From assembly GCA_018064455.1 (NCBI GenBank), contig JAGHVH010000029.1, positions 4,683 to 68,682 on the forward strand: 64,000 nucleotides of DNA, read 5' to 3'. The translations under genes were made by a program, and so were the position numbers. Of the stretch, positions 11,720-64,000 are shown piece by piece. Numbering within the stretch: the first letter of the stretch is position 1; the number at the start of each line of letters is the position of its first letter. The notes under the pieces are model-generated. The model made no database searches and had not been told where the DNA came from. It saw nothing but the letters and a program-made list of their open reading frames with translations. This DNA is from Candidatus Limimonas egerieequi (GTDB lineage Bacteria > Bacillota > Clostridia > Oscillospirales > Acutalibacteraceae).

Positions 11720-13255
11720 TTATTTATCCATCGATATATAAGTTTTCCTTATACCTGCGTACAAATCCGATGCCACCATACCAGCAACGCTCGTGTCCTC
11801 TAACACGATTTCGGCCGCGTTTCCATGGATAAATGCACCTGCACACGCTGCATCAAAGGCCGAAAGCCCTTGCGCAATTAATGCACCAATAATACCAGAA
11901 AGCACATCCCCTGAACCACCTGTCGCAAGGGCAGCGTTGCCACTATTATTGATATACACTGTTTCATCATCATAAGTTGCAACCACTGTTGCAGCACCCT
12001 TGAGCAAAACAGTTACATTGTGACGCTTTGAAAACTCCTCAGCAATGCCTTCCCTGTTAGCCTCAATCTCAGCAACTGTAAGGCCTGTAAGCCTTGACAT
12101 TTCACCTGGATGAGGAGTTAAAACAACTGGTACTGATACCTCATCTAAAATAGATAAATCAGAAGCAAGCACATTAATACCATCAGCATCAACAACCACT
12201 GGACACTTGGCACTTCTAAGCACTGAGAAGACAACTTCTTTGACATCCTCAGTTGCTGAGAGTCCTGGTCCAATCACAATTACTGAAGCCTTTGCCATAT
12301 ATGTCTGAAGGAGTGATATGCACTCCACTGTCGCTGCCAATTTACCATCAATACATGGGAGTGGCAAGAGCATTACCTCTTTGAATCCACTGGCAAGGGA
12401 TGCATATGCAGACTCTGGGAAAGCGACTGTTGTAAGGCCTGCTCCAGCAACACATGCAGCACCACTACAAAGGCATGCTGCACCAGGCATATTCCTGCTT
12501 CCAGCGATGCAAAGCACATGACCAAAATCATTTTTGTGAGCTGTCACAGCACGCTCTGGAAGCATATCAGATACTTCTGTTAGTGAGAGGCTCTTGAGCC
12601 TTGGTGAAACGGATGATAACGCCTCTAAACTAATGCCAATATTGAGTACTGTGACTTGGCCACAGAGTTCTCTTGCTGGGAAGAAAACATGGGCTGGTTT
12701 GAGTGTTGTAATCGCAAGTGTTACATCGGCACAAACAGCATATTTACAAGCCTCTCCAGTATCTGTATTAACTCCACTTGGCACATCAACAGCAACTACA
12801 AAAGCAGTTGATGTATTAATCAATTTAAAGACCTCTGAGCACACTTCATCAGGCTCACCATGGAATCCTATTCCAAAGATACAATCAACCAAAATATCGG
12901 CTGATGCGATGGCATCCGCTGCGCCCTCTGGATCCCAATCGTACCTTATGATATCCACTATCATAGAATCCACTTTGTGATACATCTCGAGGGCGTCAGT
13001 TGCAAGTGGCGCTCCCTGGGCCAGCACGATTGTCACGTGCGCCCCAGCCTCAACAAGCTTCCTTGCAATGACGAATCCATCTCCGCCGTTTTTGCCCTTA
13101 CCGCAGACAACACATACCGTGTTGTCGCGCTTTATATACTTTCCAATCCTTTTAGCACACGCAGCGCCTGCGTTTTCCATCAATCTAATAAAAGGAATGC
13201 CTATTTCATTTTCTCGCTCCTCTACGAAGCGTATTTCATCAGTAGTATAAATTTT
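11720..13255 (-). CDS. nnr: bifunctional NAD(P)H-hydrate repair enzyme (epimerase + ADP-dependent dehydratase)
   Basis: N-terminal YjeF_N domain (LMENAGAA..., CGKGKNGGDG) and C-terminal carbohydrate-kinase-like domain (HKNDFGHVL, TPHPGE, LKGAATVV, GNAALATGGSGDVLSG). The ORF track starts at 13294. I prefer the TTG at 13255 (MKIYTTDEIR), which is preceded by ggtggtga. Confidence 0.85.
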   Translation of the reverse strand, partial: KIYTTDEIRFVEERENEIGIPFIRLMENAGAACAKRIGKYIKRDNTVCVVCGKGKNGGDGFVIARKLVEAGAHVTIVLAQGAPLATDALEMYHKVDSMIVDIIRYDWDPEGAADAIASADILVDCIFGIGFHGEPDEVCSEVFKLINTSTAFVVAVDVPSGVNTDTGEACKYAVCADVTLAITTLKPAHVFFPARELCGQVTVLNIGISLEALSSVSPRLKSLSLTEVSDMLPERAVTAHKNDFGHVLCIAGSRNMPGAACLCSGAACVAGAGLTTVAFPESAYASLASGFKEVMLLPLPCIDGKLAATVECISLLQTYMAKASVIVIGPGLSATEDVKEVVFSVLRSAKCPVVVDADGINVLASDLSILDEVSVPVVLTPHPGEMSRLTGLTVAEIEANREGIAEEFSKRHNVTVLLKGAATVVATYDDETVYINNSGNAALATGGSGDVLSGIIGALIAQGLSAFDAACAGAFIHGNAAEIVLEDTSVAGMVASDLYAGIRKTYISMDK

Positions 13256-49993: not shown

Positions 49994-51679
49994 TTATTTT
50001 TTTGTGCCGAAAAGGCCTCTAACAATTGCATTGGCACCTGTACGCATTACAGATGAAAGAGCTGTATTAGCTGCCTGCTTTGCAATCTTGTCAGCAGATT
50101 TAACACTGCCTGAACCAGTAACAGTATTTACCATATTAGTAGTAATTGAACGTGCTACTGAAGATGCGGCATTTGATGCTGCACGCTCGAATACTTTCTT
50201 TTTCTTTTCAGCTTCTTTTGCTGCTTCTTTCTCAGCCTTTTCCTGAGCCTTTTGAGCAGCCTTTGCCTCAAGCTCAGCCTTGCGCTCCTCAGCCTTGAGT
50301 GCAGCAGCCTCAGCCTTTGCTTCTTCCTTTGCAAGCTTTTCAGCTTCCTTAGCTTCTGCCGCCTCAACGGCTGCCTGCTCCTGCTCAACCTTGAGCTTTT
50401 CTGTTGCAGCCATAATTACTTCATAAGCTGACTCTGGATCCTGTGTTTCCCTATACTTTAAATCAAACTCAGATGACACAATTGCTGTATTAACCTTAGC
50501 TGGATCTGCCTGGCCCATAAGGCTCTGAGGAGGCAAAATCTTGGCTCTCTCAACTACAACAGGTGTACCAGACTCATCAAGGAATGAAACAAGTGCCTCA
50601 CCTGTACCTACTTCCATAAGTGCCTGCTCTGAATCAAATGCTGGGTTTGCACGGAATGCTGCTGCAGCGGCTTTTACCATCTTTTGCTCAGCAGGAGTAT
50701 ATGCACGAAGTCCATGCTGAACACGGTTTGAAAGTTGTGCTAAAACCTCATCAGGAATATCTGATGGTGACTGTGAAATAAAGTAGATACCAACACCCTT
50801 AGAACGGATGAGTTTTACTACCTGAACAATCTTCTGTACAAATGCCTTTGGAGCATCAGCAAAGAGAAGATGTGCCTTATCAAAGAAGAATACCATGCGA
50901 GGCTTATCAAGGTCGCCTACCTCTGGGAGTTGCTCAAAGAGTTCATTGAGCATCCAAATGAGGAATGTTGAATATACTGTTGGGCTGCCAATAAGCTTAG
51001 CTGATGAGAGGATATTGATAAATCCACGTCCATCAATATCAGTGCGCATCCAGTCCTTGATATCGAGCATTGGAAGGCCGAATACGCCTTCGCCGCCCTC
51101 CTGTTCAAACTGTAAAAGTGCGCGCTGAATTGCACCAATTGATGAAGATGATACATTGCCATAAGTCAATGTATACTCCTCTGCGTTCTCACCAACAAAA
51201 CCAAGCATAGCGCGGAGGTCCTTAAGGTCATAGAGCAAAAGGCCCTTATCATCCGCAACTTTAAATACCAAATTAAGTACGCCCTCTTGAACATCAGAGA
51301 GGTTCAAAAGGCGTGAGAGGAATGTAGGTCCCATATCAGAGATTGTAACTCTTACCGGGTGACCCGACTCACCAAAGATATCCCAGAATCTTGTTGGATA
51401 TCCCTTTTGCTGGAAACCATCGATTCCAAATTTTTCCTTGGCACGAACATCCATTCCTGTGCCAGGTTCGAGCATACCTGTAAGGTCACCTTTTACATCA
51501 GAGAAAAATACTGGTACGCCAAGGTCTGAAAATGACTCAGCCATAACTTTCATAGTTATAGTTTTACCAGTACCTGTTGCGCCGGCAATGAGGCCGTGGC
51601 GGTTTGCCATCTTTGGCAAAATATAGAGTTCTGTTCCTTCAAAGGAGCTTGCTACCCAAATTTTTCCGTCTTTTAACAT
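49994..51679 (-). CDS. DUF853/HerA-like P-loop ATPase (YjgR type) with Lys/Ala/Glu-rich C-terminal coiled-coil region
   Basis: Walker A GATGTGKT, Walker B-like VFFFDKAHLLF, and the SQSPSDIP arginine-finger region typical of DUF853. Confidence 0.8.
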   Translation of the reverse strand: MLKDGKIWVASSFEGTELYILPKMANRHGLIAGATGTGKTITMKVMAESFSDLGVPVFFSDVKGDLTGMLEPGTGMDVRAKEKFGIDGFQQKGYPTRFWDIFGESGHPVRVTISDMGPTFLSRLLNLSDVQEGVLNLVFKVADDKGLLLYDLKDLRAMLGFVGENAEEYTLTYGNVSSSSIGAIQRALLQFEQEGGEGVFGLPMLDIKDWMRTDIDGRGFINILSSAKLIGSPTVYSTFLIWMLNELFEQLPEVGDLDKPRMVFFFDKAHLLFADAPKAFVQKIVQVVKLIRSKGVGIYFISQSPSDIPDEVLAQLSNRVQHGLRAYTPAEQKMVKAAAAAFRANPAFDSEQALMEVGTGEALVSFLDESGTPVVVERAKILPPQSLMGQADPAKVNTAIVSSEFDLKYRETQDPESAYEVIMAATEKLKVEQEQAAVEAAEAKEAEKLAKEEAKAEAAALKAEERKAELEAKAAQKAQEKAEKEAAKEAEKKKKVFERAASNAASSVARSITTNMVNTVTGSGSVKSADKIAKQAANTALSSVMRTGANAIVRGLFGTKK

Positions 51680-51696: not shown

Positions 51697-52194
51697 CTAT
51701 TTGTCGATTCTTTCGTTTTCTTTCTCAAGGTCTTCCATAAACTGGTGAAGTGTCTGAACAAGCAAAAGCGTTTTAACATTACCAAGAGGCAAACTAGAAA
51801 GGATTCCCTTTGGAACATTTGCCAATTCCTTTTTGAGTTCAAGCCCTCTTTCCGTCAAGAACACTTGCATATTACGCTCATCTTTTTGATCGCGCTTTCT
51901 CTCAACATATCCAACCGTTTCTAACTTCTTAAGAAGCGGAGTCAAAGTACCAGAATCAAGGAACAACCTCTTACCAAGTTCCTTGACGTTTACGCCATCC
52001 TTCTCCCACAGTGCCATCAATGTGATGTAACCCGTATAGGTCAAATCATAGGGATCAAGAAATGATTTGTACCTTCTAATTACCTCTTTTGACGACACGT
52101 AAAGTGAGAAGCAAAGTTGGTTATCAAGTTTTTGCAATTCATCATCTGGGATTGCCGAAAGGGCCAATCCAGCGAATTTGTTTTCCTTAGCCAT
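51697..52194 (-). CDS. ohrR: MarR-family organic-hydroperoxide-sensing regulator (OhrR type)
   Basis: LDNQLCFSLYVSSKE (the conserved sensing-Cys context) and YLDSGTLTPLLKKLE..GYVERKR...DER closely resemble OhrR. I prefer the ATG at 52194 (MAKENKF). Confidence 0.75.
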   Translation of the reverse strand: MAKENKFAGLALSAIPDDELQKLDNQLCFSLYVSSKEVIRRYKSFLDPYDLTYTGYITLMALWEKDGVNVKELGKRLFLDSGTLTPLLKKLETVGYVERKRDQKDERNMQVFLTERGLELKKELANVPKGILSSLPLGNVKTLLLVQTLHQFMEDLEKENERIDK

Positions 52195-52253
52195 TACTTC
52201 ACCCGCTAAATAAAAATACATATTAATTGTAAACAATTTATGCAGGAAATTCA

Positions 52254-52287
52254 ATAATAAAAGGGAGCCTTTCGGCTCCCTTTTTAC
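52254..52287. terminator. bidirectional terminator hairpin at the core/island junction
   Basis: aagggagcc-tttc-ggctccctt flanked by an A-run and a T-run. Confidence 0.7.
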
Positions 52288-52829
52288 TAATTCAGTTCTT
52301 CAAATTTAATGTTATTATCCGTAGCGTATTTCTCTACTTTTGAATTCTTTTGAGCACAAATCATTGCATTTGTATCAATAAAAACACAATCTCCAAATAA
52401 TGTATCTGGATTATTTATTATTACTTTTTTCAAACTTTTGCACTCTGCAAATGCCCATGAATTAATTTGATAAACACTTTTCGGAACTACTACAGTTTCA
52501 ATAATTTTATTGTGCACAAAACAAGTTATATCAATTTTTTTTACAGATATATTCTCAATTTCATTAGGTATTTCTATTTCAGTTTTGTTTCCAATATAGT
52601 CAACTATTATTACTTCTGCTTTCGCATCATCAATGTAATACTTGTAACCATCCAAAGTCGTTTTAATTCCAAGTGTCTCTTCTTGCTCTACGATATTAAA
52701 TTTATCGTTGCTATTCTTAACCGCTGGAGCAACTATAATTTTATTTAATAAAAATGCAGAAAACGACACTAAAACAAATACTAATATAGAGAGAACTACC
52801 AATTTCCTTGTAATCAGTTTACTCTTCAT
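52287..52829 (-). CDS. membrane-anchored BspA-type leucine-rich-repeat protein
   Basis: N-terminal TM (LVVLSILVFVLVSFSAFLL) followed by LRR_5-like units (IEIPNEIENISVKKIDITCF; VVVPKSVYQINSWAFAECKSLKKVII). ATG at 52829. Confidence 0.6.
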   Translation of the reverse strand: MKSKLITRKLVVLSILVFVLVSFSAFLLNKIIVAPAVKNSNDKFNIVEQEETLGIKTTLDGYKYYIDDAKAEVIIVDYIGNKTEIEIPNEIENISVKKIDITCFVHNKIIETVVVPKSVYQINSWAFAECKSLKKVIINNPDTLFGDCVFIDTNAMICAQKNSKVEKYATDNNIKFEELN

Positions 52830-53442
52830 AAAGGTTGCCCTCTTCCATTTTAAGAATAATGTCACAAACACTTTCCAAATCTTCTTTATGATGAGTTGTC
52901 AATATGATTGTTGCACCTTTTTCCTTTTCGTCATGAATTATATTGTACACCAACTTGACGCCTGCTGTATCCAGAGCATTCGTTGGCTCGTCCAACAGAA
53001 TAATCTTCGGATGTTCAAAAATAGCTTGAGCAATATTCAAACGTTGTTTCATACCAAGAGAATATTTTTTTACCTTTAAATCAGAGTTTAGACCTACTCT
53101 TTCTAAACTATCACTAATATCCGAATCGGTTGCGACTTTCCTAATTTCGCTAAGTATCTTTAAATTATCAAATGCATTATAATTTGGAAGCAAACGCATA
53201 TTTTCAATAACAATACCCAAACCTTGAGGGAAAGAAATATCTTTGTGTAATTCTACATTATCTATTTTGACAGTTCCGCTAGTTGGAACAATCAAACCTG
53301 CAACAGCACGAAGTAGCATAGTTTTTCCAGAGCCATTTGTTCCATATATTCCATAGACCGTGCCATCATTAAAAGAATAATTGATGTTATTTAAAACCGT
53401 TCTTTTTTTAAAATCTTTACTGTAATTTATTAGTTCAATCAT
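52819..53442 (-). CDS. ABC transporter ATP-binding protein (short, 207 aa)
   Basis: Walker A GTNGSGKT, signature LSLGMKQR, Walker B ILLDEPTNALD and H-loop TTHH. Confidence 0.9.
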   Translation of the reverse strand: MIELINYSKDFKKRTVLNNINYSFNDGTVYGIYGTNGSGKTMLLRAVAGLIVPTSGTVKIDNVELHKDISFPQGLGIVIENMRLLPNYNAFDNLKILSEIRKVATDSDISDSLERVGLNSDLKVKKYSLGMKQRLNIAQAIFEHPKIILLDEPTNALDTAGVKLVYNIIHDEKEKGATIILTTHHKEDLESVCDIILKMEEGNLYEE

Positions 53443-53451
53443 ATTGTCACC

Positions 53452-54132
53452 TTAAATTATATCAATTTTTTTTAATTTCTTTTGTGAAATAAATACGAGT
53501 ATTAAATTGATAATCATAGCCCATAAACATAAAAGAGTTGATAGCCTATCAAAATTAATAAAAATAATATTTGGAAAAAATATCAAGGTTGCAAGGGTGC
53601 TCTTTCCAAAATTAATTTCAATCAACATATCTATAAAATAGGAAAAGTATAAAATAACCAAAGTTATTATTAAAGAAACTGGTGCGTCATATGTAAGTTC
53701 AAAGTAATGTTGGAGTAGTAGTAATGCATTAATTGTAAGATAATGGCAAAGAACAGCAACAATAATTATCTCACAATCAAATTGACTAATTTGTCGCATT
53801 TGTAAAATTAAATAATTCACTAAGCACTGCGCGGCAACTAATAAAAGCGTATTTTCTGAGATTTTTTTCAAGCTCACAACTAAGGCCTTGTTTCTTTTTC
53901 TACATCTAGATATAACTAATTGCCCATAATCTATTAACCACATTTTGCTACTATCCATAGATACAATTAACAAACCAACAATTGGTGCACTATAAACCAT
54001 TAGATATATGATGTTTATATTCGTGTAGTCAATTCCACTTATAAAAGCAATCGCATCGCATCCTTGTTGATAAAAAAATGCTGTTTGCAATAAAGTAAGA
54101 ATTATAATGATCAAGTAATTACTTCGTTTCAT
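53452..54132 (-). CDS. polytopic membrane protein (putative ABC permease component 3)
   Basis: About 6 hydrophobic helices. Overlaps the upstream gene stop. I recognise no family motif. Confidence 0.55.
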   Translation of the reverse strand: MKRSNYLIIIILTLLQTAFFYQQGCDAIAFISGIDYTNINIIYLMVYSAPIVGLLIVSMDSSKMWLIDYGQLVISRCRKRNKALVVSLKKISENTLLLVAAQCLVNYLILQMRQISQFDCEIIIVAVLCHYLTINALLLLQHYFELTYDAPVSLIITLVILYFSYFIDMLIEINFGKSTLATLIFFPNIIFINFDRLSTLLCLWAMIINLILVFISQKKLKKIDII

Positions 54133-54832
54133 CAATAAAGTCCTTTTTTCTATGTAATATTAGCGCTAACAAAAATATAGCTAAAGAGGTAAAGATATTT
54201 CGAAGCAACACCATTCCCACTTGATAATAAGTATTCTGTTTAAATAGTAAGTCATAATAAACTGAAACATCATCACAAGGCATCCAATTTAATAGTAAAT
54301 AATTTTTAACTATGACTGCCTCAACAAAATAAAGTAAGAATGTCAATAAAAGGGATATGTTTTTTTCAAAAAAGTTATTAAATATTGAAAAAATAAAAGT
54401 ACATCTTAAATAGTAGATTGTAATTGTTATAACATTTATTAGCCCATAAAATAACAAAGATTTAGCACTTAACTTTGCATTAATTACTATTAGCCCTATA
54501 GCATTAATCAATTCATGAATGCACGCTATAACAAAACAAATGATAGTATTACTAATAAGCTCGTTAAAAACCAATCTATCCCTGGTTTCATATCTACTTG
54601 GAAAGTAATTATTAGAAAAATAGTAACACGAAACAAGTAATGGAATAATTGGTACAACGATTAAATAATTCACTCCGCTATAATTATATTCAAGTAGATT
54701 TATAGTCATATCACTTATTGAATTAGAAATAAGATCTTTAAATATTAAAGCAATCCATAAAACACAAAACGCCAACAACCAAAAGACACCCAATTTAATC
54801 AACAATTTGGTTTTTATACGACAAGTCATCAT
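54119..54832 (-). CDS. polytopic membrane protein (putative ABC permease component 2)
   Basis: About 6 hydrophobic helices. The ATG pair at 54832/54829 is preceded by ggagaa. Overlaps its neighbours. Confidence 0.55.
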   Translation of the reverse strand: MMTCRIKTKLLIKLGVFWLLAFCVLWIALIFKDLISNSISDMTINLLEYNYSGVNYLIVVPIIPLLVSCYYFSNNYFPSRYETRDRLVFNELISNTIICFVIACIHELINAIGLIVINAKLSAKSLLFYGLINVITITIYYLRCTFIFSIFNNFFEKNISLLLTFLLYFVEAVIVKNYLLLNWMPCDDVSVYYDLLFKQNTYYQVGMVLLRNIFTSLAIFLLALILHRKKDFIDETK

Positions 54833-55589
54833 TTTTTGTTCTCCATATAACACAAACAATTGTTACTAATATATGCGTGGCTATACAAGCAATATAAACT
54901 GGTAAAATATCTGATAAATTGTATTCCGAAAATGGCTGTATCGAGAGCATTATTGATTTTCTAGGTATAAAGAATATGTACCAAATCAAAAAAGATGCTA
55001 TATATACTTTTTTTCTATCACCAAACGCAAGCGCCATACTACTCCCTGTCATACCAATTGTTCCACTAAGGATAGATGCAACAAAAATAAATACGATATT
55101 AGTAAGCAATGGTTTTCTTAAGCACACTTCAGCTAGACTTCCGAACTTAAATAAATCTGATTCAAAAGTTTTAGTAACACCATATAAAAGAATATGTGAA
55201 ACAATCAAATTTATCATTAAAGAAACAAAAATAATTGCAAATGATATAGTAAACCCCTTAATCAGCATAGTTTTTATGTATTTCTTTTTCCCTATTTTTG
55301 TAATTTGCACTATATCATTTCCAGTTGAAAAATCTTCAAAAATATCATCTGAAACGATAAACAGTAAACTAATCGGTAACATCCAAAAAACCAACGCATG
55401 AAAATTAGGACCAATTCCAGTGAAAGCCAAAAAGACGCTCAAATTAGCATTGTATGGCATTCCACCAACAGGAATATTTTTTATCTTATAAAAAATATCA
55501 AAAAGCATTACAGATACTATAATTATGATTAAAAATAGTTTACGTTTATCGTTGAAAATTCTTATTACACTATACATATACCACTCCAT
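54795..55589 (-). CDS. polytopic membrane protein (putative ABC permease component 1)
   Basis: About 6 hydrophobic helices. The start is uncertain (55589 or 55577). Confidence 0.55.
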   Translation of the reverse strand: MEWYMYSVIRIFNDKRKLFLIIIIVSVMLFDIFYKIKNIPVGGMPYNANLSVFLAFTGIGPNFHALVFWMLPISLLFIVSDDIFEDFSTGNDIVQITKIGKKKYIKTMLIKGFTISFAIIFVSLMINLIVSHILLYGVTKTFESDLFKFGSLAEVCLRKPLLTNIVFIFVASILSGTIGMTGSSMALAFGDRKKVYIASFLIWYIFFIPRKSIMLSIQPFSEYNLSDILPVYIACIATHILVTIVCVIWRTKNDDLSYKNQIVD

Positions 55590-55623
55590 AATAGAGTAGG
55601 GCAAAAGCCCTACTCCTTCCTAA

Positions 55624-56061
55624 TTATAATAATGTGCCTGTCTCTTCATCCCAGTATCCTGATACAACATATGCAGTTGCAACATTATTATTGTTACGAA
55701 CACCAAGGTCCGTATTTTTGTGATAAGCATTATTATAAACACCTTTATAATATTTGCCATTTCCACAAATCACATTTACAACATCAGAATATTGTGTGCG
55801 TGTTATTCCTGAACTAGCAAGCCAATAAATAGCGATAGCCGATGTCCCTTCAGCATTATAAGTCATATTCACCATCCAAGGATTATTTGTCTTATCAGAA
55901 TCACGATATCTTGAATCTCCACAATAATTGTTAGCGCAATTCTTTTTCATAGTAAATGAATATGGGAAATTATCCTCTGCTGCGAATGCAGAAAATGATA
56001 AAGCCATTGACAAAACCACTATTACTACTAATAACAAACTAATCTTTTTTGTACTTTTCAT
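55624..56061 (-). CDS. small secreted protein (145 aa, Sec signal peptide, Cys-containing, Asn/Tyr-rich)
   Basis: Signal peptide MKSTKKISLLLVVIVVLSMALSFSAFA|AEDN. The mature part is beta-rich with 3 Cys. I recognise no family. Confidence 0.6.
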   Translation of the reverse strand: MKSTKKISLLLVVIVVLSMALSFSAFAAEDNFPYSFTMKKNCANNYCGDSRYRDSDKTNNPWMVNMTYNAEGTSAIAIYWLASSGITRTQYSDVVNVICGNGKYYKGVYNNAYHKNTDLGVRNNNNVATAYVVSGYWDEETGTLL

Positions 56062-56122
56062 TTTTTAAAATTCCTTTCTCTTATATTTTTAATTTCCTAA
56101 AAATACTGCCCTCCTTTCAATA

Positions 56123-56163
56123 GTCTCTAATTAATATGTGTAAAAAATACATCAAAATATTAC
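56123..56163 (-). promoter_or_regulatory. conserved promoter-like motif, copy 1 (upstream of the 145-aa secreted protein/ABC operon)
   Basis: The minus strand reads GTAATATTTTGATGTATTTTTTACACATATTAATTAGAGAC. It shares GTAATATTTTG-N-T-N3-TTTTTT-N-CAC-N-TATTA with copy 2. Confidence 0.45.
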
Positions 56164-56183
56164 AAATGACTTATCAGTTATTC

Positions 56184-56215
56184 ACAACAAAAAGGGAGCC
56201 GTTTGGCTCCCTTTT
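56184..56215 (-). terminator. rho-independent terminator after the 134-aa secreted protein gene
   Basis: aaagggagcc-gttt-ggctcccttt with a T-run on the minus strand. The stem is nearly identical to the hairpin at 52261-52282. Confidence 0.7.
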
Positions 56216-56220
56216 CCTCG

Positions 56221-56625
56221 TTAATATGCATACTTAACTACCGTCTCTGAATCCGATGCAGTATAAGCTGTGAATGTTACTTTCAACCTATATGTACTCA
56301 ACGGAGAGGTTAACTTACTCTCATCCATTGAAGCATTGCGAGAATCAAAAGTTTCTTCCCACGTTTGAACAGTAGAATAAGATCCGTTACTCAACTTTTG
56401 AAGTTCCATTTTAATTTTTACTCGCTTAACACTTGAAGAACCCGTAATATTTGATGTTACAGACGTTGACACTGTACCTTGATCAATTCCATAGTTTAGT
56501 ACAGCAATATACGTATAACGTAATGGTTCTTCCTTTCCTGTTCCGTTAGCAAACACAGTCACACTTAGGGTGACTAGCAATATGAATGCTAATACAATTG
56601 CGCCTAACACTTTTTTTAATTTCAT
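56221..56625 (-). CDS. small secreted protein (134 aa, Sec signal peptide, Ser/Thr-rich beta-type)
   Basis: Signal peptide MKLKKVLGAIVLAFILLVTLSVTVFA|NG. The mature part shows alternating beta-strand-like patterns. I recognise no family. Confidence 0.6.
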   Translation of the reverse strand: MKLKKVLGAIVLAFILLVTLSVTVFANGTGKEEPLRYTYIAVLNYGIDQGTVSTSVTSNITGSSSVKRVKIKMELQKLSNGSYSTVQTWEETFDSRNASMDESKLTSPLSTYRLKVTFTAYTASDSETVVKYAY

Positions 56626-56660
56626 AAAAGCACATCCTTACATTTAGTACGTTAACTAAT

Positions 56661-56702
56661 AACGTCTGTATAATAAGTGCAAAAAAACAAGCAAAATATT
56701 AC
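56661..56702 (-). promoter_or_regulatory. conserved promoter-like motif, copy 2 (upstream of the 134-aa secreted protein)
   Basis: The minus strand reads GTAATATTTTGCTTGTTTTTTTGCACTTATTATACAGACGTT. Its TAA is the anti-sigma stop codon. Confidence 0.45.
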
Positions 56703-57388
56703 AACTCTTTTCTAGATTCTACAATTTTTATTAATGCTTCAATTGTTATTTCACCGTTTTTATCATAATCAGCAAAAATGCTATGATGGTATTTACCGGA
56801 ATTCCATACCAACGTAATGCCTTTATCACCTATTATGTAAAATGCATCTAATCCATTTATGACAGTTGTCCCAGAAGCATCATTTTCAGTATCTAATGAA
56901 GAAACGCTATCTTTATTCTTTGTTGTATAAATAAAAATACTATTTCCGTCATCATTAGAGAAAGATATTGACTGGCAATTCTTTTCCTGCTTATCCTCTA
57001 CCAACTTATAGCCATCAGGAACATATGTATACTGTGCATACAAAAAATCATTTGCATTTTCATTAACGCCAAAAGTTATATCTGTACTTTCTTTAAAATA
57101 AGAAAAAATGAAATCTCTAAATGGTTCAATAGCGAATGCTGCGATTGAGAAAAACACCAAAACAATAATTGCAACGAGTGCAATCTTTACTGCCTTCCTA
57201 ATCTCAATATGTTTAACCTTTTTGCTATTACCATCTAGCTTTCTTAAGAAAGCAACCATTTGTTTCCGTTCTTTTTTGGACAAACATTCCATTGGCTCAT
57301 TTTCGATTTTTGCAATATATTCATCCAATATTTGATTATTAGCTTCAATACAAGCTTCTCTTAAAACTGTATCGCTTTTACTTTGCAT
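56699..57388 (-). CDS. anti-sigma factor-like membrane protein with DUF4367-type extracytoplasmic domain
   Basis: Cytoplasmic N-terminus, single TM (IALVAIIVLVFFSIAAFAI), then a C-terminal domain with YVPDGYKL...VINGLDAFYI...LVWNSGKYHHSIFA...IEALIKIVES, typical of DUF4367. TAATG overlap with the sigma gene. Confidence 0.7.
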   Translation of the reverse strand: MQSKSDTVLREACIEANNQILDEYIAKIENEPMECLSKKERKQMVAFLRKLDGNSKKVKHIEIRKAVKIALVAIIVLVFFSIAAFAIEPFRDFIFSYFKESTDITFGVNENANDFLYAQYTYVPDGYKLVEDKQEKNCQSISFSNDDGNSIFIYTTKNKDSVSSLDTENDASGTTVINGLDAFYIIGDKGITLVWNSGKYHHSIFADYDKNGEITIEALIKIVESRKEL

Positions 57389-57927
57389 TAAAACTCCTCC
57401 CCACAAAGCATAGAACAAATCATCTGTTTTCCTCTATATAATCTCTGTAAAACTAGATTTTCTGAAATAGATAATGTATCTGCAATTTCTTTTGCAGAAT
57501 ATCCATCTACATATTTCATAATTATAGGAACTTGATACTTTTCATCTAACGACCTAATAGCAGAAACAATTTCAGCAATATCGTACTTGCTATTATCAAA
57601 AGTAGCGATTTTGTATTCATCTTCGCCTGAAATCATTTCCAAAGGTTCTATATTTGTAGCGCACGTAACATTATTAATGCATATGGCACATCGCTTACAA
57701 ATAGTAACTAAATACCGTTTTTGCTTATATTTGGGAAGAGTATTAAAAGTTTCAAAATTATCAACTAACCTTAAAAAAGTATCTTGCAAACAATCCAATC
57801 TTAATGATTTATCAACCAAATAATCTCCTGCTGTTTTTACAACCAAGTATTCATACTTGGTGTAGACTTCTTCAAATTTTCTCTTGTCTTCTTCTCGTTC
57901 AAACGATTGCAAATATAGACCTAACAT
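57388..57927 (-). CDS. ECF-type sigma-70 family RNA polymerase sigma factor
   Basis: Region 2-like (FEEVYTKYEYLVVKTAGDYL...CLQDTFLRL) and region 4 HTH (YVDGYSAKEIADTLSISENLVLQRLYRGK). The ATG at 57927 is preferred. The track start at 58059 would translate through a hairpin repeat. Confidence 0.8.
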   Translation of the reverse strand: MLGLYLQSFEREEDKRKFEEVYTKYEYLVVKTAGDYLVDKSLRLDCLQDTFLRLVDNFETFNTLPKYKQKRYLVTICKRCAICINNVTCATNIEPLEMISGEDEYKIATFDNSKYDIAEIVSAIRSLDEKYQVPIIMKYVDGYSAKEIADTLSISENLVLQRLYRGKQMICSMLCGEEF

Positions 57928-57933
57928 ATTTTG

Positions 57934-57942
57934 CCCCCCCCC
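57934..57942 (-). repeat. homopolymeric G9 tract (C9 on the plus strand), 6 nt upstream of the sigma-factor ATG
   Basis: Counted directly: plus strand ttgCCCCCCCCCggtcgac. Confidence 0.9.
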
Positions 57943-58319: not shown

Positions 58320-58481
58320 TTAAGGCTTTGGTTTCGATACATTAGTATCGGTTTTAGGCGGTGACGGCGGTGCATTTTTACTTGTAGGCTGGTACCCAAA
58401 TTTACCTGGATTCGGTTGATACCTACGTTGCACAACACCTTTTCGAGGAATTCCTTTATTACATTTTTGATTGTTATTCAT
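58320..58481 (-). CDS. possible 53-codon ORF (basic, Pro-rich), translationally coupled to the upstream membrane-protein gene
   Basis: My own translation gives MNNNQKCNKGIPRKGVVQRRYQPNPGKFGYQPTSKNAPPSPPKTDTNVSKPKP. Its ATG lies inside GATGAATAA, overlapping the stop of the 58474-59091 gene. It is below the ORF-track length cutoff. Confidence 0.3.
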   Translation of the reverse strand: MNNNQKCNKGIPRKGVVQRRYQPNPGKFGYQPTSKNAPPSPPKTDTNVSKPKP

Positions 58482-59091
58482 CAATTTGTGCTCCTTTCTT
58501 AAACTCTATACAACGTATTTGATCTTTAGGAATATAAAATCCTTTGCTTTCTTCGTCAAAAATCCAATTTCCTTCATCATCAAGTTTATAGCCATTTTCA
58601 ACATAAATATCTCTTTCTTCGTAATCAGAAGAGCTAAATGATTCTCCAGAATACCAACCACGAAGAATATTGCCATCTATCATTGTAATGACAACAAAAC
58701 TCGGTTCTAGTTGTGAAAAGAAATAATCCCATGCTGATGGTATAGAATGAGTAGGGTTAAGTTTTACCCTTCGAAGTATTTTACCAACAACATCTTTGTA
58801 TTTTAACATAGAAATAGCAATTGCAATAAATGTAGCTCCAATAATTGTAATTGCAACAAGAAGTAAGAACAAAATGTATATATGTTTTGATAATTCTCTA
58901 AAGGCAATTATATATAGCCAACTCCAGCAAGCACAATTCACCACACTATAAGCAAGGCACTTTAGAAAATATATACTCTCACTATACTTTTTAGGCGGAT
59001 TTGTTTTATCAACAATTGAGTTTACAATAAATCCGGGTAATATAAATATTGTGGTAAGAAACACAACTTCCAAAGAATCTATAGTCATCAT
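58474..59091 (-). CDS. membrane protein, 3 N-terminal TM helices + soluble C-terminal domain (possibly DUF6338-like)
   Basis: TM segments VVFLTTIFILPGFIV, AYSVVNCACWSWLYIIAF and ILFLLLVAITIIGATFIAIAI. The C-terminal part reads SAWDYFF...VVITMIDGNILRGWY. RBS aaggtga. Confidence 0.55.
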   Translation of the reverse strand: MMTIDSLEVVFLTTIFILPGFIVNSIVDKTNPPKKYSESIYFLKCLAYSVVNCACWSWLYIIAFRELSKHIYILFLLLVAITIIGATFIAIAISMLKYKDVVGKILRRVKLNPTHSIPSAWDYFFSQLEPSFVVITMIDGNILRGWYSGESFSSSDYEERDIYVENGYKLDDEGNWIFDEESKGFYIPKDQIRCIEFKKGAQIDE

Positions 59092-59352: not shown

Positions 59353-60144
59353 TTACTTTGTAAAATGAGCAACTCCAATTTTCACTGATCTATAAACAAA
59401 ATCAACTTCTAACGGGAAGATCTCATCAAGTTGTTGCATTTTTTCCATCACATTATCCACATCAAATATTATTTGTGCATTTCCTGCTTTTCTTTGAATT
59501 AATCTCAACAAAAACCATAATGGACTAATTTCTTTATTGAAATAAATATTTCCACGTCCATCCGAATTGTACTCGAATATTACAGTGTTAATATCAGAAT
59601 AGTTTAATTCAAAGTATCGTTCACCTTTTGAAACATTTACGCATTCAATAGAATTTTCTTTGAATATCCATTCTTGCTTCTTTTCTAAAAGTAATTTAGT
59701 TGGTAAACATACACAGATATTAAGAGCACAAACAAAAATCATCAATGCACAGATTATCTTTATAAAAGCATTATGCTGCGATACTATCAAATCAATATTG
59801 ATACAAATACCTACTAACAAAATTAAATTCAGAAACAGCATTATTGAATCAAAATAATTCATTCTACATTTAGGTCTGATACTAATTTCACTATAAACTA
59901 AATCTGTTTTTTCCCTTTTCCTTTCAAATTGCCTTTTAGAAATAATCCTTTGATATGCCCTAAGAAATGAAATAATATAGATTAGCAGTAAAGGCACCGC
60001 CATAAAAGGTGCAAAGAAATACATCTCATTTGTAAATTCAAAAACATTATTAGAATTATAAGGATCAAACAAATTCGAATACATAATCAACGCAAACAAA
60101 ATAAATCCACCAATTAGAAACACTAAAATTCTTGTTTTTTGCAT
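59353..60144 (-). CDS. 4-TM membrane protein with cytoplasmic C-terminal domain; putative immunity protein for the upstream RHS toxin
   Basis: Starts 13 nt after the RHS stop with RBS gaggg. This is the toxin-then-immunity position. I recognise no family. Confidence 0.55.
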   Translation of the reverse strand: MQKTRILVFLIGGFILFALIMYSNLFDPYNSNNVFEFTNEMYFFAPFMAVPLLLIYIISFLRAYQRIISKRQFERKREKTDLVYSEISIRPKCRMNYFDSIMLFLNLILLVGICINIDLIVSQHNAFIKIICALMIFVCALNICVCLPTKLLLEKKQEWIFKENSIECVNVSKGERYFELNYSDINTVIFEYNSDGRGNIYFNKEISPLWFLLRLIQRKAGNAQIIFDVDNVMEKMQQLDEIFPLEVDFVYRSVKIGVAHFTK

Positions 60145-60157
60145 TAAAATAACCCTC

Positions 60158-63100
60158 TTATTGTTTACTGATTAAACTGATAATATCACCTAAAGTAAGA
60201 GAACCTTTTCCTTGGGTGAGGTGACCTTCAAATGGAAAGACTGAATAAATAGACGGATTTATAGAATATGAATCATATTCGCCAGACGAATAAATCACTT
60301 CGTGTTCAACACCTATAATCCCTATAGATGCACCTTCGTAAAACGAATTTCCATACAAATATTCACCAATACTCGGTGTGTTTGCAAACGCAAGTGTTCC
60401 TGAAAGCGCAACATTTGGAGTACCAGTTCCTACTTGGCCAGCAAAAAGTACAATTTCATAATTACCTTTTTCATCAATTAGAAAGCCAGAGGAAAGCGAA
60501 CCGCAAACAATAAATCCTCCAGTAATTGTAACACCAACAAAAGCTGTATCTTTTTTTGGGGAAAGTGCATCAATAATAATATCATATACATCTTCGCATC
60601 CATATTTTACAGACTGTTCTCTAACTATTTCAGATAAATATTGAGATTTTGTTTCTTTTACATATTTTTTCTCGTTTTTATTCTCTTTTACCTGCGTATG
60701 CACATTTTGTTCTAATGTTGGATTACCTGGCGTATTAGTTATCCAACCTCCAAGCTCGGTTGATTTAAAATTATTCCACACATTTTTAATGTTTAATGCA
60801 ACTTTATTTCCAAAACTTTTAGCACTATTTAAAAAAACCTTAACTGAAAAATTACCACTTGGATCAACAAAGTTGATAGGATTGTTTCCAACGTAAGCGT
60901 AACTATTTCGAGTGATAGGTTTGTTGGTATAACCTTGGAAAGTATCCTTACTTTGGAACCTGTGAGTACTTGGATTGTAGTATCTAGCACGTAAATACTG
61001 AAGGCCAGTTGAAGAGTCTGTATACTCTGCATTGTACTGATAAGGATTGTTGATAAGGTTGTTGGATGCAAATGTCTTACCATAGATGTTATATGTGTAA
61101 GATACAGCTATGTTACCATTCTTGTCAGTCAGTTGAGATACAGAACCCCTACCATCATATAGGTAAGAATATGAAATGCCATTGATGATAGCGCTATTTC
61201 TGCCATTACCATAGTCATAAACATTGGTAACCGCACCATTTGAACCGTATTCAAGAAGAACCTCTGAATACTCCTTGGTTAAATCAACAACATAACCTGT
61301 TAATTCGTATGAAAACGCATTAAACGCATTGATGCCATACATTGAAAGAAGGTTCTGCTTGATTATGCTCTTATCATATTCAATATGATTTTTACCTGAT
61401 GTACTACAAGAATTAAATACCTTTTCAGCGGTTCCTGCCGTTGTCTTAACTTCCTTTTCAAGGGTATATGCTCTATTGCCAGCACCGTCATATATGATTG
61501 CTTGAATTAATGTACCGTTTTCGTATGTGGCAACCAATCTATTTTCATTATCGTATTCATATGTCTTAGTGCCCTTTGTAAGAGTAATGTTCACGTATAG
61601 CTCAATACATTTTAATGCCGAAGCATATTCCATATTGTAGCTGTTTACTTCCTTGATAAGGTTACCATTCTTGTCATATGAGTATTTGGTGATAGCCTTA
61701 AGCTTATCAACAGTCAAGGTCTTAACTGTTAACTGATCTGCCTCATTATATTCATAAGCGGTTTTATAAAGAGTGTTTTCACCCTTCTTAACCACTTCTG
61801 ATAAGCAGTTTCCATCATTGTCATATGTGTATACTGTGTCTGTTAAGCTCCAAGTTTTACCACAGTTTGTGGTGTTCTTTTCAGTAACCATAGCCACCTG
61901 ACATCTATCATCATAACTATAGAAACGTTCAGTAGTGTTTCCGCTTTGAGTAATAGTCTCTTTGACAATCATGCCAGAAAGATCATATTCATACTCAAAT
62001 GAAGAAATCTCATCATCCTTATCTTTACCAAGTAAAGTTTTATACTCTTTGATATTCTTTACAGATACAACATTATCGTCCTCATCATATGCGAGATATG
62101 TGTGTGAATCGTTTGCTCTTATAACTTCAGTGATGTTTTCATTTTCATCTCTTAGATATCTAACAGAATTACCAGATATATCAGTCATACCTATAATTTG
62201 GTCTAAGTAATCATAGTCATACTTAGCAGCCATTCCATTAGGATATTGAAGCTTTGTCAAATCACCAAGTTTGCTATATGTATATTCTATCGTAGAAGTA
62301 CCATTTGGTAAAGTTTCTTTTACCAATCTTCCAAGAGCGTCTGTCTCAAAAGTCGTTTTACCAAAGACATCTTCCATAGATGAGATATATCCATCAGCAT
62401 CATAATTGTATTTGGTGTTTTCTGTCTTGTTTTCTGTGAGTTGACCTAAAACATCATAAGCATATTCAGTTGATGTGCCATCTGCATTTTTTACTTTTGC
62501 AATCTGTGAATTCAAGTTGTATTCAAATTCACTGATATTTGAAAGTGGGTCCTTTATTGATACCTGATTTCCAACAAGGTCGTATGCATAGGTTGTTTCG
62601 TTTCCATTACCATTTACATAACTTGTCAAATTACCAACCGTGTCATACTTATAATTTGCAGTAACCACATCTCCTTCTTTTACAGAAGAAAGATTACCAT
62701 TTTTGGTATATGTGTATGCTATTTCCCTACCTACAGGGTCCTTGATGTTAGTAACATTGTAGATGGCATCATATGTATATTCCGTTGTTCCGCCTCTTCG
62801 ATTAGTAGTTGAAATGAGATTGTTCATCAAGTCATAACCATATGAAACCTCATTCCCCTTATAATCTGATTCAGCTATAAGATTGCCAACTGAGTCGTAT
62901 GTAAAGTTACGTGTCCTATGCTTAGGATTTGTTATTGAAACAACATTTCCAAGAGCATCAACTTCGTACGTATAAATTGAACCATTATCATTTACTGAAA
63001 CCAAATCGCCTCTTGCGTTATATTCATAAGTTGTCTCTTCTCCAAGTGCGTTAGTTTCAGATACCAAGTTATACATGACATCATACTTATATAATGTTTT

Positions 63101-64000
63101 CTTACCCATTGCACTTTCTAATAAAGTAACATTTGAGTTCAAATCATATGTGTATGATATAGTAGCTTCTTTTGCATTTGTTGCTGCAATCAGACGAGAC
63201 GCTTTGTCATATATGTAACTATTGTTTGCACCAGCGTTTGTGCTGTCACCAGAAAGTTGTCCCTTTTCATTAAAGGTATATGTCGTTTCAAGACCATTAG
63301 CAGCCTTCTCATTTACAACTCGACTTTCAAGGTCAAAAGTATCCTCTAAGACTGCACCATTTGGGGACACAATTTTAGTATTGTTTCCAAACTTATCATA
63401 TGAGAACTTGTATTCATTTCCTTCATAGTCAGTGTTCTTGCTAACAAGTCCAACTTTATTATATGAGAAAGTCATTGTATTACCCAAAGCATTTGTCATT
63501 GCTATTAGGTTTTCATTTGCATCATATGCATAAAGTGTGGCATTGCCATTTGCATCGATTACTTTCGATACTAAATCATAGCTATTGTACTCATAGATAG
63601 TAACAGCATCATTTTCATCTGTAGTTTTAATAAGATTGCCGTTTAAATCATATTCATACTTTGTAACATGGCCAAGTGCATCAGCTCTTGTTGAAACTAG
63701 ATTTAATGAGTTATATGTATACTTTGTAACAAAGCCGAGTTCATCTGTTATTGATAACAAATTGCCGTTTTTGTCATATGAATACTCAAGAGTGCTTCCA
63801 TTACTTTGAGTCGTCTTAACAATTTGTCCAAGAGCATCATACTCATATGAATTATTTAATCCAGAATTATTTACTTCACTTACTATATTACCGACAGTGT
63901 CATATGAATAAGTTGTTTTAAGTCCAGTCGGGTATGAAATCGACTCAACTCTATTCATATTATCATAAGTATATGCTGTTACAGCGCCTGCCTTATCAAC
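60158..64000 (-). CDS. RHS/YD-repeat polymorphic toxin, partial (N-terminus beyond the window end), with a 229-aa unrecognised C-terminal domain
   Basis: Dozens of YD repeats (e.g. YSYDTVGN, YEYDALGQ, YTYNSLNL). The RHS core end motif is RARYYNPSTHRFQSKD...YAYVGNNPINFVDPSG. The frame stays open through 63959-64000 (VDKAGAVTAYTYDN). Confidence 0.9.
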   Translation of the reverse strand, partial: VDKAGAVTAYTYDNMNRVESISYPTGLKTTYSYDTVGNIVSEVNNSGLNNSYEYDALGQIVKTTQSNGSTLEYSYDKNGNLLSITDELGFVTKYTYNSLNLVSTRADALGHVTKYEYDLNGNLIKTTDENDAVTIYEYNSYDLVSKVIDANGNATLYAYDANENLIAMTNALGNTMTFSYNKVGLVSKNTDYEGNEYKFSYDKFGNNTKIVSPNGAVLEDTFDLESRVVNEKAANGLETTYTFNEKGQLSGDSTNAGANNSYIYDKASRLIAATNAKEATISYTYDLNSNVTLLESAMGKKTLYKYDVMYNLVSETNALGEETTYEYNARGDLVSVNDNGSIYTYEVDALGNVVSITNPKHRTRNFTYDSVGNLIAESDYKGNEVSYGYDLMNNLISTTNRRGGTTEYTYDAIYNVTNIKDPVGREIAYTYTKNGNLSSVKEGDVVTANYKYDTVGNLTSYVNGNGNETTYAYDLVGNQVSIKDPLSNISEFEYNLNSQIAKVKNADGTSTEYAYDVLGQLTENKTENTKYNYDADGYISSMEDVFGKTTFETDALGRLVKETLPNGTSTIEYTYSKLGDLTKLQYPNGMAAKYDYDYLDQIIGMTDISGNSVRYLRDENENITEVIRANDSHTYLAYDEDDNVVSVKNIKEYKTLLGKDKDDEISSFEYEYDLSGMIVKETITQSGNTTERFYSYDDRCQVAMVTEKNTTNCGKTWSLTDTVYTYDNDGNCLSEVVKKGENTLYKTAYEYNEADQLTVKTLTVDKLKAITKYSYDKNGNLIKEVNSYNMEYASALKCIELYVNITLTKGTKTYEYDNENRLVATYENGTLIQAIIYDGAGNRAYTLEKEVKTTAGTAEKVFNSCSTSGKNHIEYDKSIIKQNLLSMYGINAFNAFSYELTGYVVDLTKEYSEVLLEYGSNGAVTNVYDYGNGRNSAIINGISYSYLYDGRGSVSQLTDKNGNIAVSYTYNIYGKTFASNNLINNPYQYNAEYTDSSTGLQYLRARYYNPSTHRFQSKDTFQGYTNKPITRNSYAYVGNNPINFVDPSGNFSVKVFLNSAKSFGNKVALNIKNVWNNFKSTELGGWITNTPGNPTLEQNVHTQVKENKNEKKYVKETKSQYLSEIVREQSVKYGCEDVYDIIIDALSPKKDTAFVGVTITGGFIVCGSLSSGFLIDEKGNYEIVLFAGQVGTGTPNVALSGTLAFANTPSIGEYLYGNSFYEGASIGIIGVEHEVIYSSGEYDSYSINPSIYSVFPFEGHLTQGKGSLTLGDIISLISKQ

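Follow-up and report, generated by a model that had tools for sequence, protein, structure and literature searches.

We describe here a nine-gene locus of Candidatus Limimonas egerieequi, located at positions 52287-57927 of the minus strand of a 64,000-nucleotide stretch of genomic DNA ("the window" in the following; assembly GCA_018064455.1, contig JAGHVH010000029.1, positions 4,683 to 68,682). The locus is, we are confident, a composite one, in which a regulatory triad, formed by a sigma factor of the extracytoplasmic function (ECF) type, an anti-sigma factor with a DUF4367 domain and a secreted protein of 134 amino acids (p134), is followed by a five-gene cassette, encoding a secreted DUF2712 protein, three transmembrane (TM) proteins, here called TM1, TM2 and TM3, and the ATPase of an ATP-binding cassette (ABC) transporter, and by a gene for a leucine-rich repeat (LRR) protein of the LRR_5 type; the same confidence extends to the identity of the cassette. 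A sequence-only reading of this stretch had proposed a single, undescribed nine-gene module, a view which had to be abandoned: the nine genes form two transcription units, bounded by two strong terminators, triad and cassette mostly occur separately, and the five-gene core is made of conserved, already catalogued families, and is not a wholly undescribed unit. What is new is the probable regulatory coupling of a known cassette, whose families are annotated by PGAP, to a sigma triad, with a Rhs toxin gene nearby. As to function, the best overall explanation, which we put forward tentatively, is an island under the control of one sigma factor, deploying a secreted effector from which the producer is protected by an ABC system.

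The five-gene cassette

The diffusion of the cassette was assessed by a census seeded with DUF2712, in which 48 loci, from one genome per species, and 8 metagenome loci were collected, and their open reading frames (ORFs) were assigned by iterative profile searches. Genes for DUF2712, TM1, TM2, TM3 and the ABC ATPase were found together, almost always in that order, in 46 of the 56 loci; 6 more are cut by contig ends. The hosts, all Clostridia and Bacilli, include Oscillospiraceae, Lachnospiraceae, Ruminococcus bromii, Anoxybacillus, Peribacillus, Lactiplantibacillus, Enterococcus and Pediococcus; the cassette also occurs in Bacillus and Listeria, and its clostridial hosts include members of the rumen and gut flora. 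The same cassette is recognizable on a Priestia plasmid, where PGAP annotates, one after the other, DUF2712, DUF2705, WxPxxD and DUF2705 proteins, an ABC ATPase and a hypothetical protein; among 72,556 plasmid records, TM1-type and DUF2712-type queries match the same three.

A transporter adjoins every intact DUF2712 gene for which enough flanking sequence is available. Truncated DUF2712 genes are also found beside intact-looking transporter genes (L053 7020-7223, L054 9986-10189 and L055 2469-2636), and in one locus, L050, the gene is interrupted, its halves (169-492 and 1898-2191) lying about 1.4 kb apart. A DUF2712 remnant with no transporter is present in L051 (287-517), and tandem duplications of the gene in L023 and L037. 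Mobility and defense genes lie beside two cassettes, which is consistent with horizontal spread: a large serine recombinase gene in L001 (4271-5809), and NACHT, resolvase, RapH_N and Abi_C genes in the B. mojavensis locus L057 (12536-16441).

Neither the two small secreted proteins nor the three permease-like proteins of the locus had been recognized from the sequence alone. Profile searches assigned DUF2712, TM2 and TM3 to Pfam or NCBIfam families, leaving p134 and TM1 without a direct match, and the structural similarities found are generic only. The DUF2712 protein matches its family (PF10916) with 81.4 bits, against a gathering threshold of 22 (E 9.6e-23), over residues 34-141, which correspond to positions 2-111 of the 111 of the profile. 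It is composed of a canonical Sec signal peptide (AFA/AE) and a domain of about 117 residues, and contains no LPXTG motif, lipobox or TM helix. Since the protein is, by its signal peptide, exported by Sec, the ABC system would have some other role; the transporter was indeed considered as a DUF2712 exporter, and judged unlikely to be one in view of the canonical signal peptide.

The predicted DUF2712 structure is a jelly-roll (pLDDT 90.5). Foldseek searches against PDB and viral structures returned generic jelly-rolls only, with TM-scores not exceeding about 0.5, the best PDB match being PirA (TM 0.42-0.53, E 4e-4, probability 1.0), along with CBM36 and CBM6. In family alignments, a NNN loop and a C-terminal GYWDEE motif are invariant. 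Cysteines, to which the sequence-only reading had drawn attention, are present in the 145-amino acid protein, but vary among homologues, and a conserved disulfide was rejected on this ground. The family is small, with 257 representatives among 1.84 billion proteins, all of them stand-alone proteins of about 140 amino acids, with no fusions. Neither DUF2712 nor p134 matches any NCBIfam family, those of bacteriocins included, at E <= 0.1, and no functional account was found in the literature on DUF2712, DUF2705, WxPxxD and DUF4367.

Among the membrane proteins, TM2 matches NF035952 (WxPxxD_TM) with 78.3 bits, against a NCBIfam cutoff of 70, and TM3 matches DUF2705 (PF10920) with 42.3 bits, against a gathering threshold of 22.4 (E 6.9e-11). 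TM1 of the window has no direct family match; 10 of 29 homologues match DUF2705, and one matches ABC2_membrane_4 (E 2.7e-5). The three proteins, formerly described as unrelated, are instead distant paralogues (hhalign probability 95 %, E about 1e-8), a relationship visible by profile-profile comparison only, pairwise BLAST of TM1 against TM3 yielding nothing. Their profiles have no match among PDB sequences at E <= 1, and the family similarities just described suggest that all three are ABC-2-like, that is, related to ABC-2 permeases. The ATPase matches ABC_tran (E 8e-32); the only hit within a phage collection, a 376-nt similarity to the ABC ATPase in two unannotated Listeria phage records, was rejected as irrelevant.

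The LRR_5 protein matches PF13306 with 31 bits, against a gathering threshold of 27.7, about one repeat unit being matched, and features a TM helix. Its gene is found as a sixth cassette gene, 3' of the ATPase, in 22 loci, all of Clostridia, and is absent from all Bacilli cassettes. The same slot is occupied in 13 loci, mainly of Bacilli, by an unrelated membrane-anchored protein of about 200-225 amino acids, without Pfam match (for example L022 13416-14042, L057 11366-11992 and L143 8666-9301).

Genomes of the B. subtilis group carry clusters of DUF2712, three TM and ABC genes (such as L057), and the cassette appears, by matching composition, to be of the type of the B. subtilis yybN-yybM-yybL-yybK-yybJ operon. 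This operon is repressed by DnaA, besides Rok. It is AT-rich, horizontally acquired and a Rok target, silenced along with the sdp, sbo-alb, sunA and yydF antimicrobial loci (PMC2978689), and YybJ2KL has been modelled as a type V (ABC-2) exporter, in the same class as TagGH (PMC11466899).

The regulatory triad

The sigma factor exceeds the TIGR02937 cutoff (64.2 bits against 42.9) and is of the ECF (group 4) type, having regions 2 and 4 only and a gene overlapping, within a TAATG, that of a single-pass DUF4367 protein. The overlap, in which the ATG of the anti-sigma gene is fused to the sigma stop codon, had been correctly read from the sequence. The anti-sigma factor matches DUF4367 (PF14285; E 2.4e-14) and has one TM helix, at residues 69-87. 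The third protein, p134, has no match in Pfam or NCBIfam, and belongs to a family of at least 647 homologue clusters, all without family annotation. The protein itself is modelled, with a pLDDT of 90.5, as an Ig-like sandwich of seven strands, and Foldseek searches against PDB gave generic Ig-like folds only, with TM-scores up to about 0.5; fold matches being generic for both p134 and DUF2712, no function can be transferred from them.

Neighborhoods of p134 were collected in five loci, by contig look-up from three p134 homologues, and in 80 p134-seeded metagenome loci. With few exceptions, p134 homologues whose upstream flank is available have sigma and DUF4367 genes directly 5' of them. The triad is a module in its own right, and a widespread one, followed in about 60 other loci by variable cargo, most commonly Rhs toxins. 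Rhs/YD-shell toxin genes come after p134 in 15 loci, mostly 13-58 nt away; LRR_5 proteins are encoded downstream of p134 in a few loci, and downstream of the Rhs gene in triad loci L058 and L059, the rest of the cargo being assorted small secreted or membrane proteins.

The expectation that all nine genes co-occur across genomes was thus only in part borne out. Triad and DUF2712 cassette stand together, in the same order, only in the window strain, in L001-3 (46 % DUF2712 identity) and in L013 (43 %), whereas about 42 of the 46 cassette copies lack the sigma triad, and none of the 80 p134-seeded metagenome loci contains DUF2712. Elsewhere the cassette is accompanied by other regulators. Genes for a LytTR response regulator and an AgrC-like GHKL kinase are placed directly 5' of DUF2712 in three loci (L009 7734-9725, L020 6936-8953 and L024 7734-9780), and nearby, rather than adjacent, in L014, L023 and L035; the cassettes with these genes have no sigma triad. 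Regulators of the cassette are therefore modular, and of the quorum-sensing type in the LytTR/GHKL loci.

A promoter-like motif upstream of the Rhs gene, p134 and DUF2712

The coupling of triad and cassette is suggested by a 32-nt promoter-like motif, TTGTAATATTTT-N13-CACWTAT. As the sequence-only reading had observed, the motif is repeated: exactly two matches, against 0 expected, are present in the 64-kb window, one before p134 and one before DUF2712. Two contigs from other samples, L145 and L146, are the same as the window over 14 kb and reach past its end. Here a third copy, TTGTAATATTTT-N13-CACTTAT, with identical spacing, was found 45 nt upstream of the Rhs start codon (L146 2216-2247); with this copy the matches are 3 in 20.8 kb, against 0 expected.

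A promoter-like element, often preceded by a terminator, is found before p134 throughout triad loci. In most of them it has the form TRTCACAAA-N-CGT/GAT..ATA, and in those with the sigma factors closest to that of the window (L070, 49 % identity; L068, 41 %; L065, 36 %) the form (T/C)GTAAK-N-CAC/ACAT, on the basis of few promoters, read manually. The form of the -35 element thus appears to follow the relatedness of the sigma factors, and this apparent co-variation with sigma clade supports the identification of the motif as the cognate ECF promoter. Recognition by the sigma factor is inferred from the conservation of the motif upstream of p134 homologues and from the same co-variation; given the three copies, at the Rhs gene, p134 and DUF2712, one sigma factor would drive all three. 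Common sigma-dependent regulation of the Rhs operon, p134 and the DUF2712 operon is, on these grounds, probable. No second sigma triad was found upstream of the Rhs gene in L145 and L146.

The poly-G tract immediately upstream of the sigma gene has nine residues in the window and in L145, and ten in L146 (about 12203-12212), and is the sole difference among the three assemblies across 14 kb. The tract may be phase-variable by a slipped-strand mechanism, with an effect on the expression of sigma, or the extra residue may be an error in assembling the homopolymer.

Organization of the locus and of the surrounding island

The features of the locus are reported in Table 1. The nine co-directional, tightly packed ORFs are all present as they had been read. 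Overlaps, which had been claimed for every junction from the first permease gene to the LRR gene, exist between TM1 and TM2 (about 38 nt), TM2 and TM3 (14-17 nt) and ABC and LRR genes (11 nt), but not between TM3 and ABC, which are separated by a 9-nt gap. The terminator which the earlier reading had placed after p134 was recovered as a strong one. It is nearly identical to that closing the second transcription unit, both having the form GGGAGCC-NNNN-GGCTCCC, flanked by A and T runs; a consensus terminator scan missed both, which were found by folding only.

Table 1. Coordinates of the nine-gene locus, its signals and the adjacent island genes in the window
Feature	Position	Strand	Basis or remark
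ECF-type sigma factor, 179 aa	57388..57927	-	Sigma70_r2 + Sigma70_r4_2; TIGR02937
Poly-G tract (G9)	57934..57942	-	6 nt upstream of sigma start codon
Anti-sigma factor, 229 aa, single-pass, extracytoplasmic DUF4367	56699..57388	-	PF14285
Promoter motif copy 1, TTGTAATATTTT-N13-CACTTAT	56673..56704	-	upstream of p134
p134, Sec-signal secreted, predicted Ig-like beta-sandwich	56221..56625	-	no Pfam/NCBIfam match
Intrinsic terminator 3' of p134	56189..56216	-	dG -26 kcal/mol, z -7.6
Promoter motif copy 2, TTGTAATATTTT-N13-CACATAT	56134..56165	-	upstream of DUF2712 operon
DUF2712 protein, 145 aa, Sec signal peptide + predicted jelly-roll	55624..56061	-	PF10916
TM1, divergent DUF2705/ABC-2-like permease paralogue, ~5-6 TM helices	54795..55604	-	homologues, hhalign
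TM2, WxPxxD-family membrane protein	ORF 54119-54859; 54119..54832 by start-codon analysis	-	NF035952
TM3, DUF2705-family membrane protein	53452..54135	-	PF10920
ABC ATPase, 207 aa, nucleotide-binding domain only	52819..53442	-	ABC_tran
LRR_5 protein, BspA-type, N-terminally membrane-anchored, ~180 aa	ORF 52287-52871; likely ATG 52829	-	PF13306
Intrinsic terminator ending DUF2712-to-LRR operon and low-GC island	52259..52284	-	dG -21.4 kcal/mol, z -6.2
DUF6338 protein	58474-59091	-	island part upstream of sigma
263-aa multi-pass membrane protein	59353-60144	-	no family; between Rhs and DUF6338 genes
Rhs/YD-shell toxin gene	60158-64000, runs off window	-	RHS_repeat E 1.7e-100

At about position 52,000 the GC content drops from 43 % to 30 %, and the block of about 30 % GC extends to the end of the window. 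The nine genes make up the downstream two-thirds of a low-GC island, about 15.5 kb long and acquired horizontally, whose full order, as read in L145 and L146, is Rhs, 263-amino acid TM protein, DUF6338, sigma, anti-sigma, p134, DUF2712, TM1-3, ABC, LRR. The complete Rhs gene (L146 2293-9987) encodes 2564 amino acids, with a N-terminal signal-like sequence, DUF6531 and YD shell, and a C-terminal domain which follows a DPxG-type motif; the membrane protein encoded next to it is a possible candidate for its immunity protein.

The island is flanked by core-like sequences, with SLFN/AlbA_2 on one side and MarR and HerA on the other. Just outside it, a gene for a MarR/SarA-type regulator (51697-52254, minus strand) is found next to one for a HerA/DUF87 ATPase (49994-51679, minus strand), which has a Lys/Ala/Glu-rich C-terminal tail and weak PADLOC matches to mad8/HerA. 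On the other side, as seen in L146, are SLFN/AlbA_2-HATPase_c_4 and PRTase-CE genes. The HerA/DUF87, SLFN/AlbA_2-HATPase_c_4 and PRTase-CE genes may denote a defense-island neighborhood. Within the locus, PADLOC found no defense-system match for eight of the nine proteins, and generic P-loop similarity only for the ATPase; by this classification of the protein sequences, the region is no known anti-phage defense system.

Proposed function and alternatives

According to the scheme that we favor, the anti-sigma factor would keep the sigma factor bound as long as no cue, from the envelope or from a competitor, reaches its own extracytoplasmic DUF4367 domain. The freed sigma factor would then read the three TTGTAATATTTT-N13-CACWTAT promoters, of the Rhs toxin operon, p134 and the DUF2712 operon, p134 probably coming first among the targets throughout this sigma family. 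The DUF2712 jelly-roll, of about 13 kDa, would be exported via Sec and act extracellularly, where the surface carrying the invariant NNN and GYWDEE residues would probably bind a conserved ligand of the envelope. The ATPase and the three paralogous membrane proteins would form an ABC-2-type pump which, working with the anchored LRR protein, may shield the producer from the secreted DUF2712, or handle it, in a way resembling the immunity provided by LanFEG with LanI/LanH.

Various observations favor an effector accompanied by its own protection system. Intact DUF2712, wherever the flanking sequence suffices, is found with the pump, whereas intact pump genes persist beside truncated DUF2712 (L053-L055); DUF2712 is interrupted in L050, and duplicated in tandem in L023 and L037. 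The ATPase comes closest to those of lantibiotic protection, without reaching their cutoff. The regulators at other loci are of the quorum-sensing type, and an antagonistic setting is indicated both here, by the likely co-regulation with Rhs, and in B. subtilis, by the co-silencing with antimicrobial loci (PMC2978689). In addition, the secreted domain has a Sec signal peptide and stands alone, without fusions, and YybJKL has been modelled as a type V exporter (PMC11466899). For the cassette taken by itself, a role as effector plus self-protection is assigned even more tentatively than the overall scheme. Its most specific version, in which the triad is a widespread, undescribed switch of gut Clostridia, sensing competitors or the envelope and firing interbacterial weapons, here the Rhs toxin together with DUF2712 as the first of a novel class of jelly-roll bacteriocins secreted by Sec, the producer being saved by a three-permease pump and an anchored binding protein, is unlikely.

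A number of points weigh against this scheme. The secreted effector and ABC system, as envisaged from the sequence alone, are compatible with all data, but the ATPase remains below the relevant cutoffs, both for its nearest subfamily, the LanF-like TIGR03740 of lantibiotic protection (E 1e-46; 159.3 bits against 309.75), and for the lactococcin-972-type TIGR03608 (115 bits against 254.85). Mean pairwise identity is 41 % for DUF2712, 20-30 % for TM1-3 and 60 % for the ATPase; DUF2712 is therefore more conserved than TM1-3, unlike the members of fast-evolving toxin/immunity pairs. The matches of the predicted structure, generic jelly-rolls, fit a binding module no less well than a toxin. As to regulation, the genes are linked, and by the shared motif probably also in their control, but the self-regulation proposed earlier did not hold at the sigma gene itself, upstream of which no motif was found, even with 2-3 mismatches allowed; in L002 and L013 there is no second promoter copy at the DUF2712 operon, so that coupling there depends on read-through from p134. 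Since the census was seeded with DUF2712, transporter-only loci are under-sampled in it. The identity of YybN as the DUF2712 protein of its operon, moreover, is only presumed, in agreement with the operon structure. Recent descriptions of the yybN operon still give it no known function (PMC11841835, PMC13599486).

Ranked nearly as likely as effector plus self-protection, though doubtful in its own right, is a role in envelope protection, with TM1-3 and the ATPase as an ECF-induced exporter of the LanFEG/BcrAB type, directed against external peptides or the cell's own Rhs toxin, and DUF2712 and the LRR protein serving for capture. Both the resemblance of the jelly-roll to carbohydrate- or ligand-binding modules and the good conservation of DUF2712, with its invariant putative binding motif, would suit such a function, as would an ATPase closest to those of lantibiotic protection and the co-occurrence, from both sides, of DUF2712 and transporter in plasmids; ECF/anti-sigma pairs are, besides, classic controllers of envelope-stress genes. 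However, the intactness of the transporter beside truncated DUF2712 indicates that DUF2712 is dispensable for retention of the pump, and a patchy, low-GC, horizontally acquired cassette, found in contexts of antagonism, looks more like a weapon than a housekeeping defense. LytTR/GHKL regulators, also, are typical of quorum-controlled secreted factors.

A surface or adhesion function is improbable. In this reading DUF2712 would act as a lectin resembling CBMs and the LRR_5 protein as an adhesin of the BspA type, both displayed on the cell surface, and the ABC-2 system would export the glycolipid or polymer bound by them, the whole establishing contact for Rhs delivery. Such a function would account for the CBM-like fold matches of DUF2712 and for the LRR_5 proteins encoded after Rhs genes in L058 and L059, and ABC-2 exporters such as TagGH (type V in PMC11466899) are generally known to move glycopolymers. 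On the other hand, DUF2712 has no anchor, none of the 56 loci links the cassette to genes for glycosyltransferases or polymer synthesis, and the LRR gene is missing in all Bacilli cassettes, its place being taken by the gene of an anchored protein of about 208 amino acids, unrelated to the LRR protein. Mere juxtaposition, the triad controlling only p134 and/or the Rhs operon, and the DUF2712 cassette being an independent mobile insert between p134 and the island edge, is the least probable reading: triad and cassette are indeed mostly found apart, separated here by a strong terminator, and other regulators accompany the cassette elsewhere, but a second copy of the 32-nt motif, with exact spacing and 0 expected by chance, lies directly before DUF2712, and the triad-plus-cassette order recurs in two more lineages, at 43-46 % protein identity.

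Notwithstanding these doubts on function, the yybN-type cassette can be approached here through three handles: its putative dedicated sigma factor, a promoter motif that is defined, and probable co-regulation with a Rhs toxin. The locus reveals no new principle; it does open to testing the function of a B. subtilis operon that has long gone unexplained. Should the cassette prove to encode a protein bacteriocin together with the immunity to it, this would define a new family of Sec-secreted antibacterial proteins, explain the horizontal mobility and silencing of the cassette, and give the yybN operon a function. The locus also exposes the unannotated p134 family, tied to sigma-controlled Rhs toxins. 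To our knowledge, little is known on the control of Rhs toxins in Gram-positive gut bacteria, where the triad, with hundreds of members, may act as a general regulator of these genes. If neither the bacteriocin nor the general regulator proves real, one more inducible ABC exporter, of unspecified substrate, has been described.

Comparison with known systems

At the level of the single secreted protein, DUF2712 shares with PirA, a subunit of the Vibrio/Photorhabdus binary toxin, and with CBM36 and CBM6, a jelly-roll beta-sandwich of about 110 residues. Identity is only 12-15 %, however, and no PirB partner is found here, so that the likeness stays at the level of the general fold.

Judged by curated thresholds for its protein sequences, the locus is neither a LanFEG nor a lactococcin-972 system, though it resembles both. 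With LanFEG and LanI/LanH (NisFEG/NisI, NukFEG/NukH) it has in common an ATPase nearest to TIGR03740, several ABC-2-like subunits of about 6 TM helices and an additional membrane-anchored extracellular protein, all encoded beside a secreted product. In contrast to those systems, its ATPase falls below the TIGR03740 cutoff, the permease paralogues are three instead of two, lantibiotic precursor and modification genes are missing, and what is secreted is a folded protein of about 13 kDa that depends on Sec. As in the lactococcin 972 system, the gene for a Sec-dependent beta-sandwich protein lies directly 5' of genes for membrane proteins and an ABC ATPase. Here, however, the secreted proteins match no bacteriocin family, and the ATPase is below the TIGR03608 cutoff; lactococcin 972 systems have one large membrane protein, not three ABC-2-like paralogues.

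Like the cassette, the yyb operon of B. subtilis lies in a low-GC setting and has one gene for a small secreted protein, three for membrane proteins and one for an ABC ATPase. It differs from the window locus in having no sigma/anti-sigma/p134 triad, LRR_5 gene or adjacent Rhs gene, and is subject to xenogeneic silencing instead.

Finally, loci of gut and rumen Clostridia composed of ECF sigma, DUF4367, p134 and Rhs genes, at times with LRR_5, feature the same triad, in the same gene order and with the same type of promoter before p134, and likewise have Rhs and LRR_5 genes in the neighborhood. In those loci the Rhs gene directly follows p134, whereas in the island described here it lies upstream, with a promoter copy of its own, and the DUF2712 cassette takes the cargo position.

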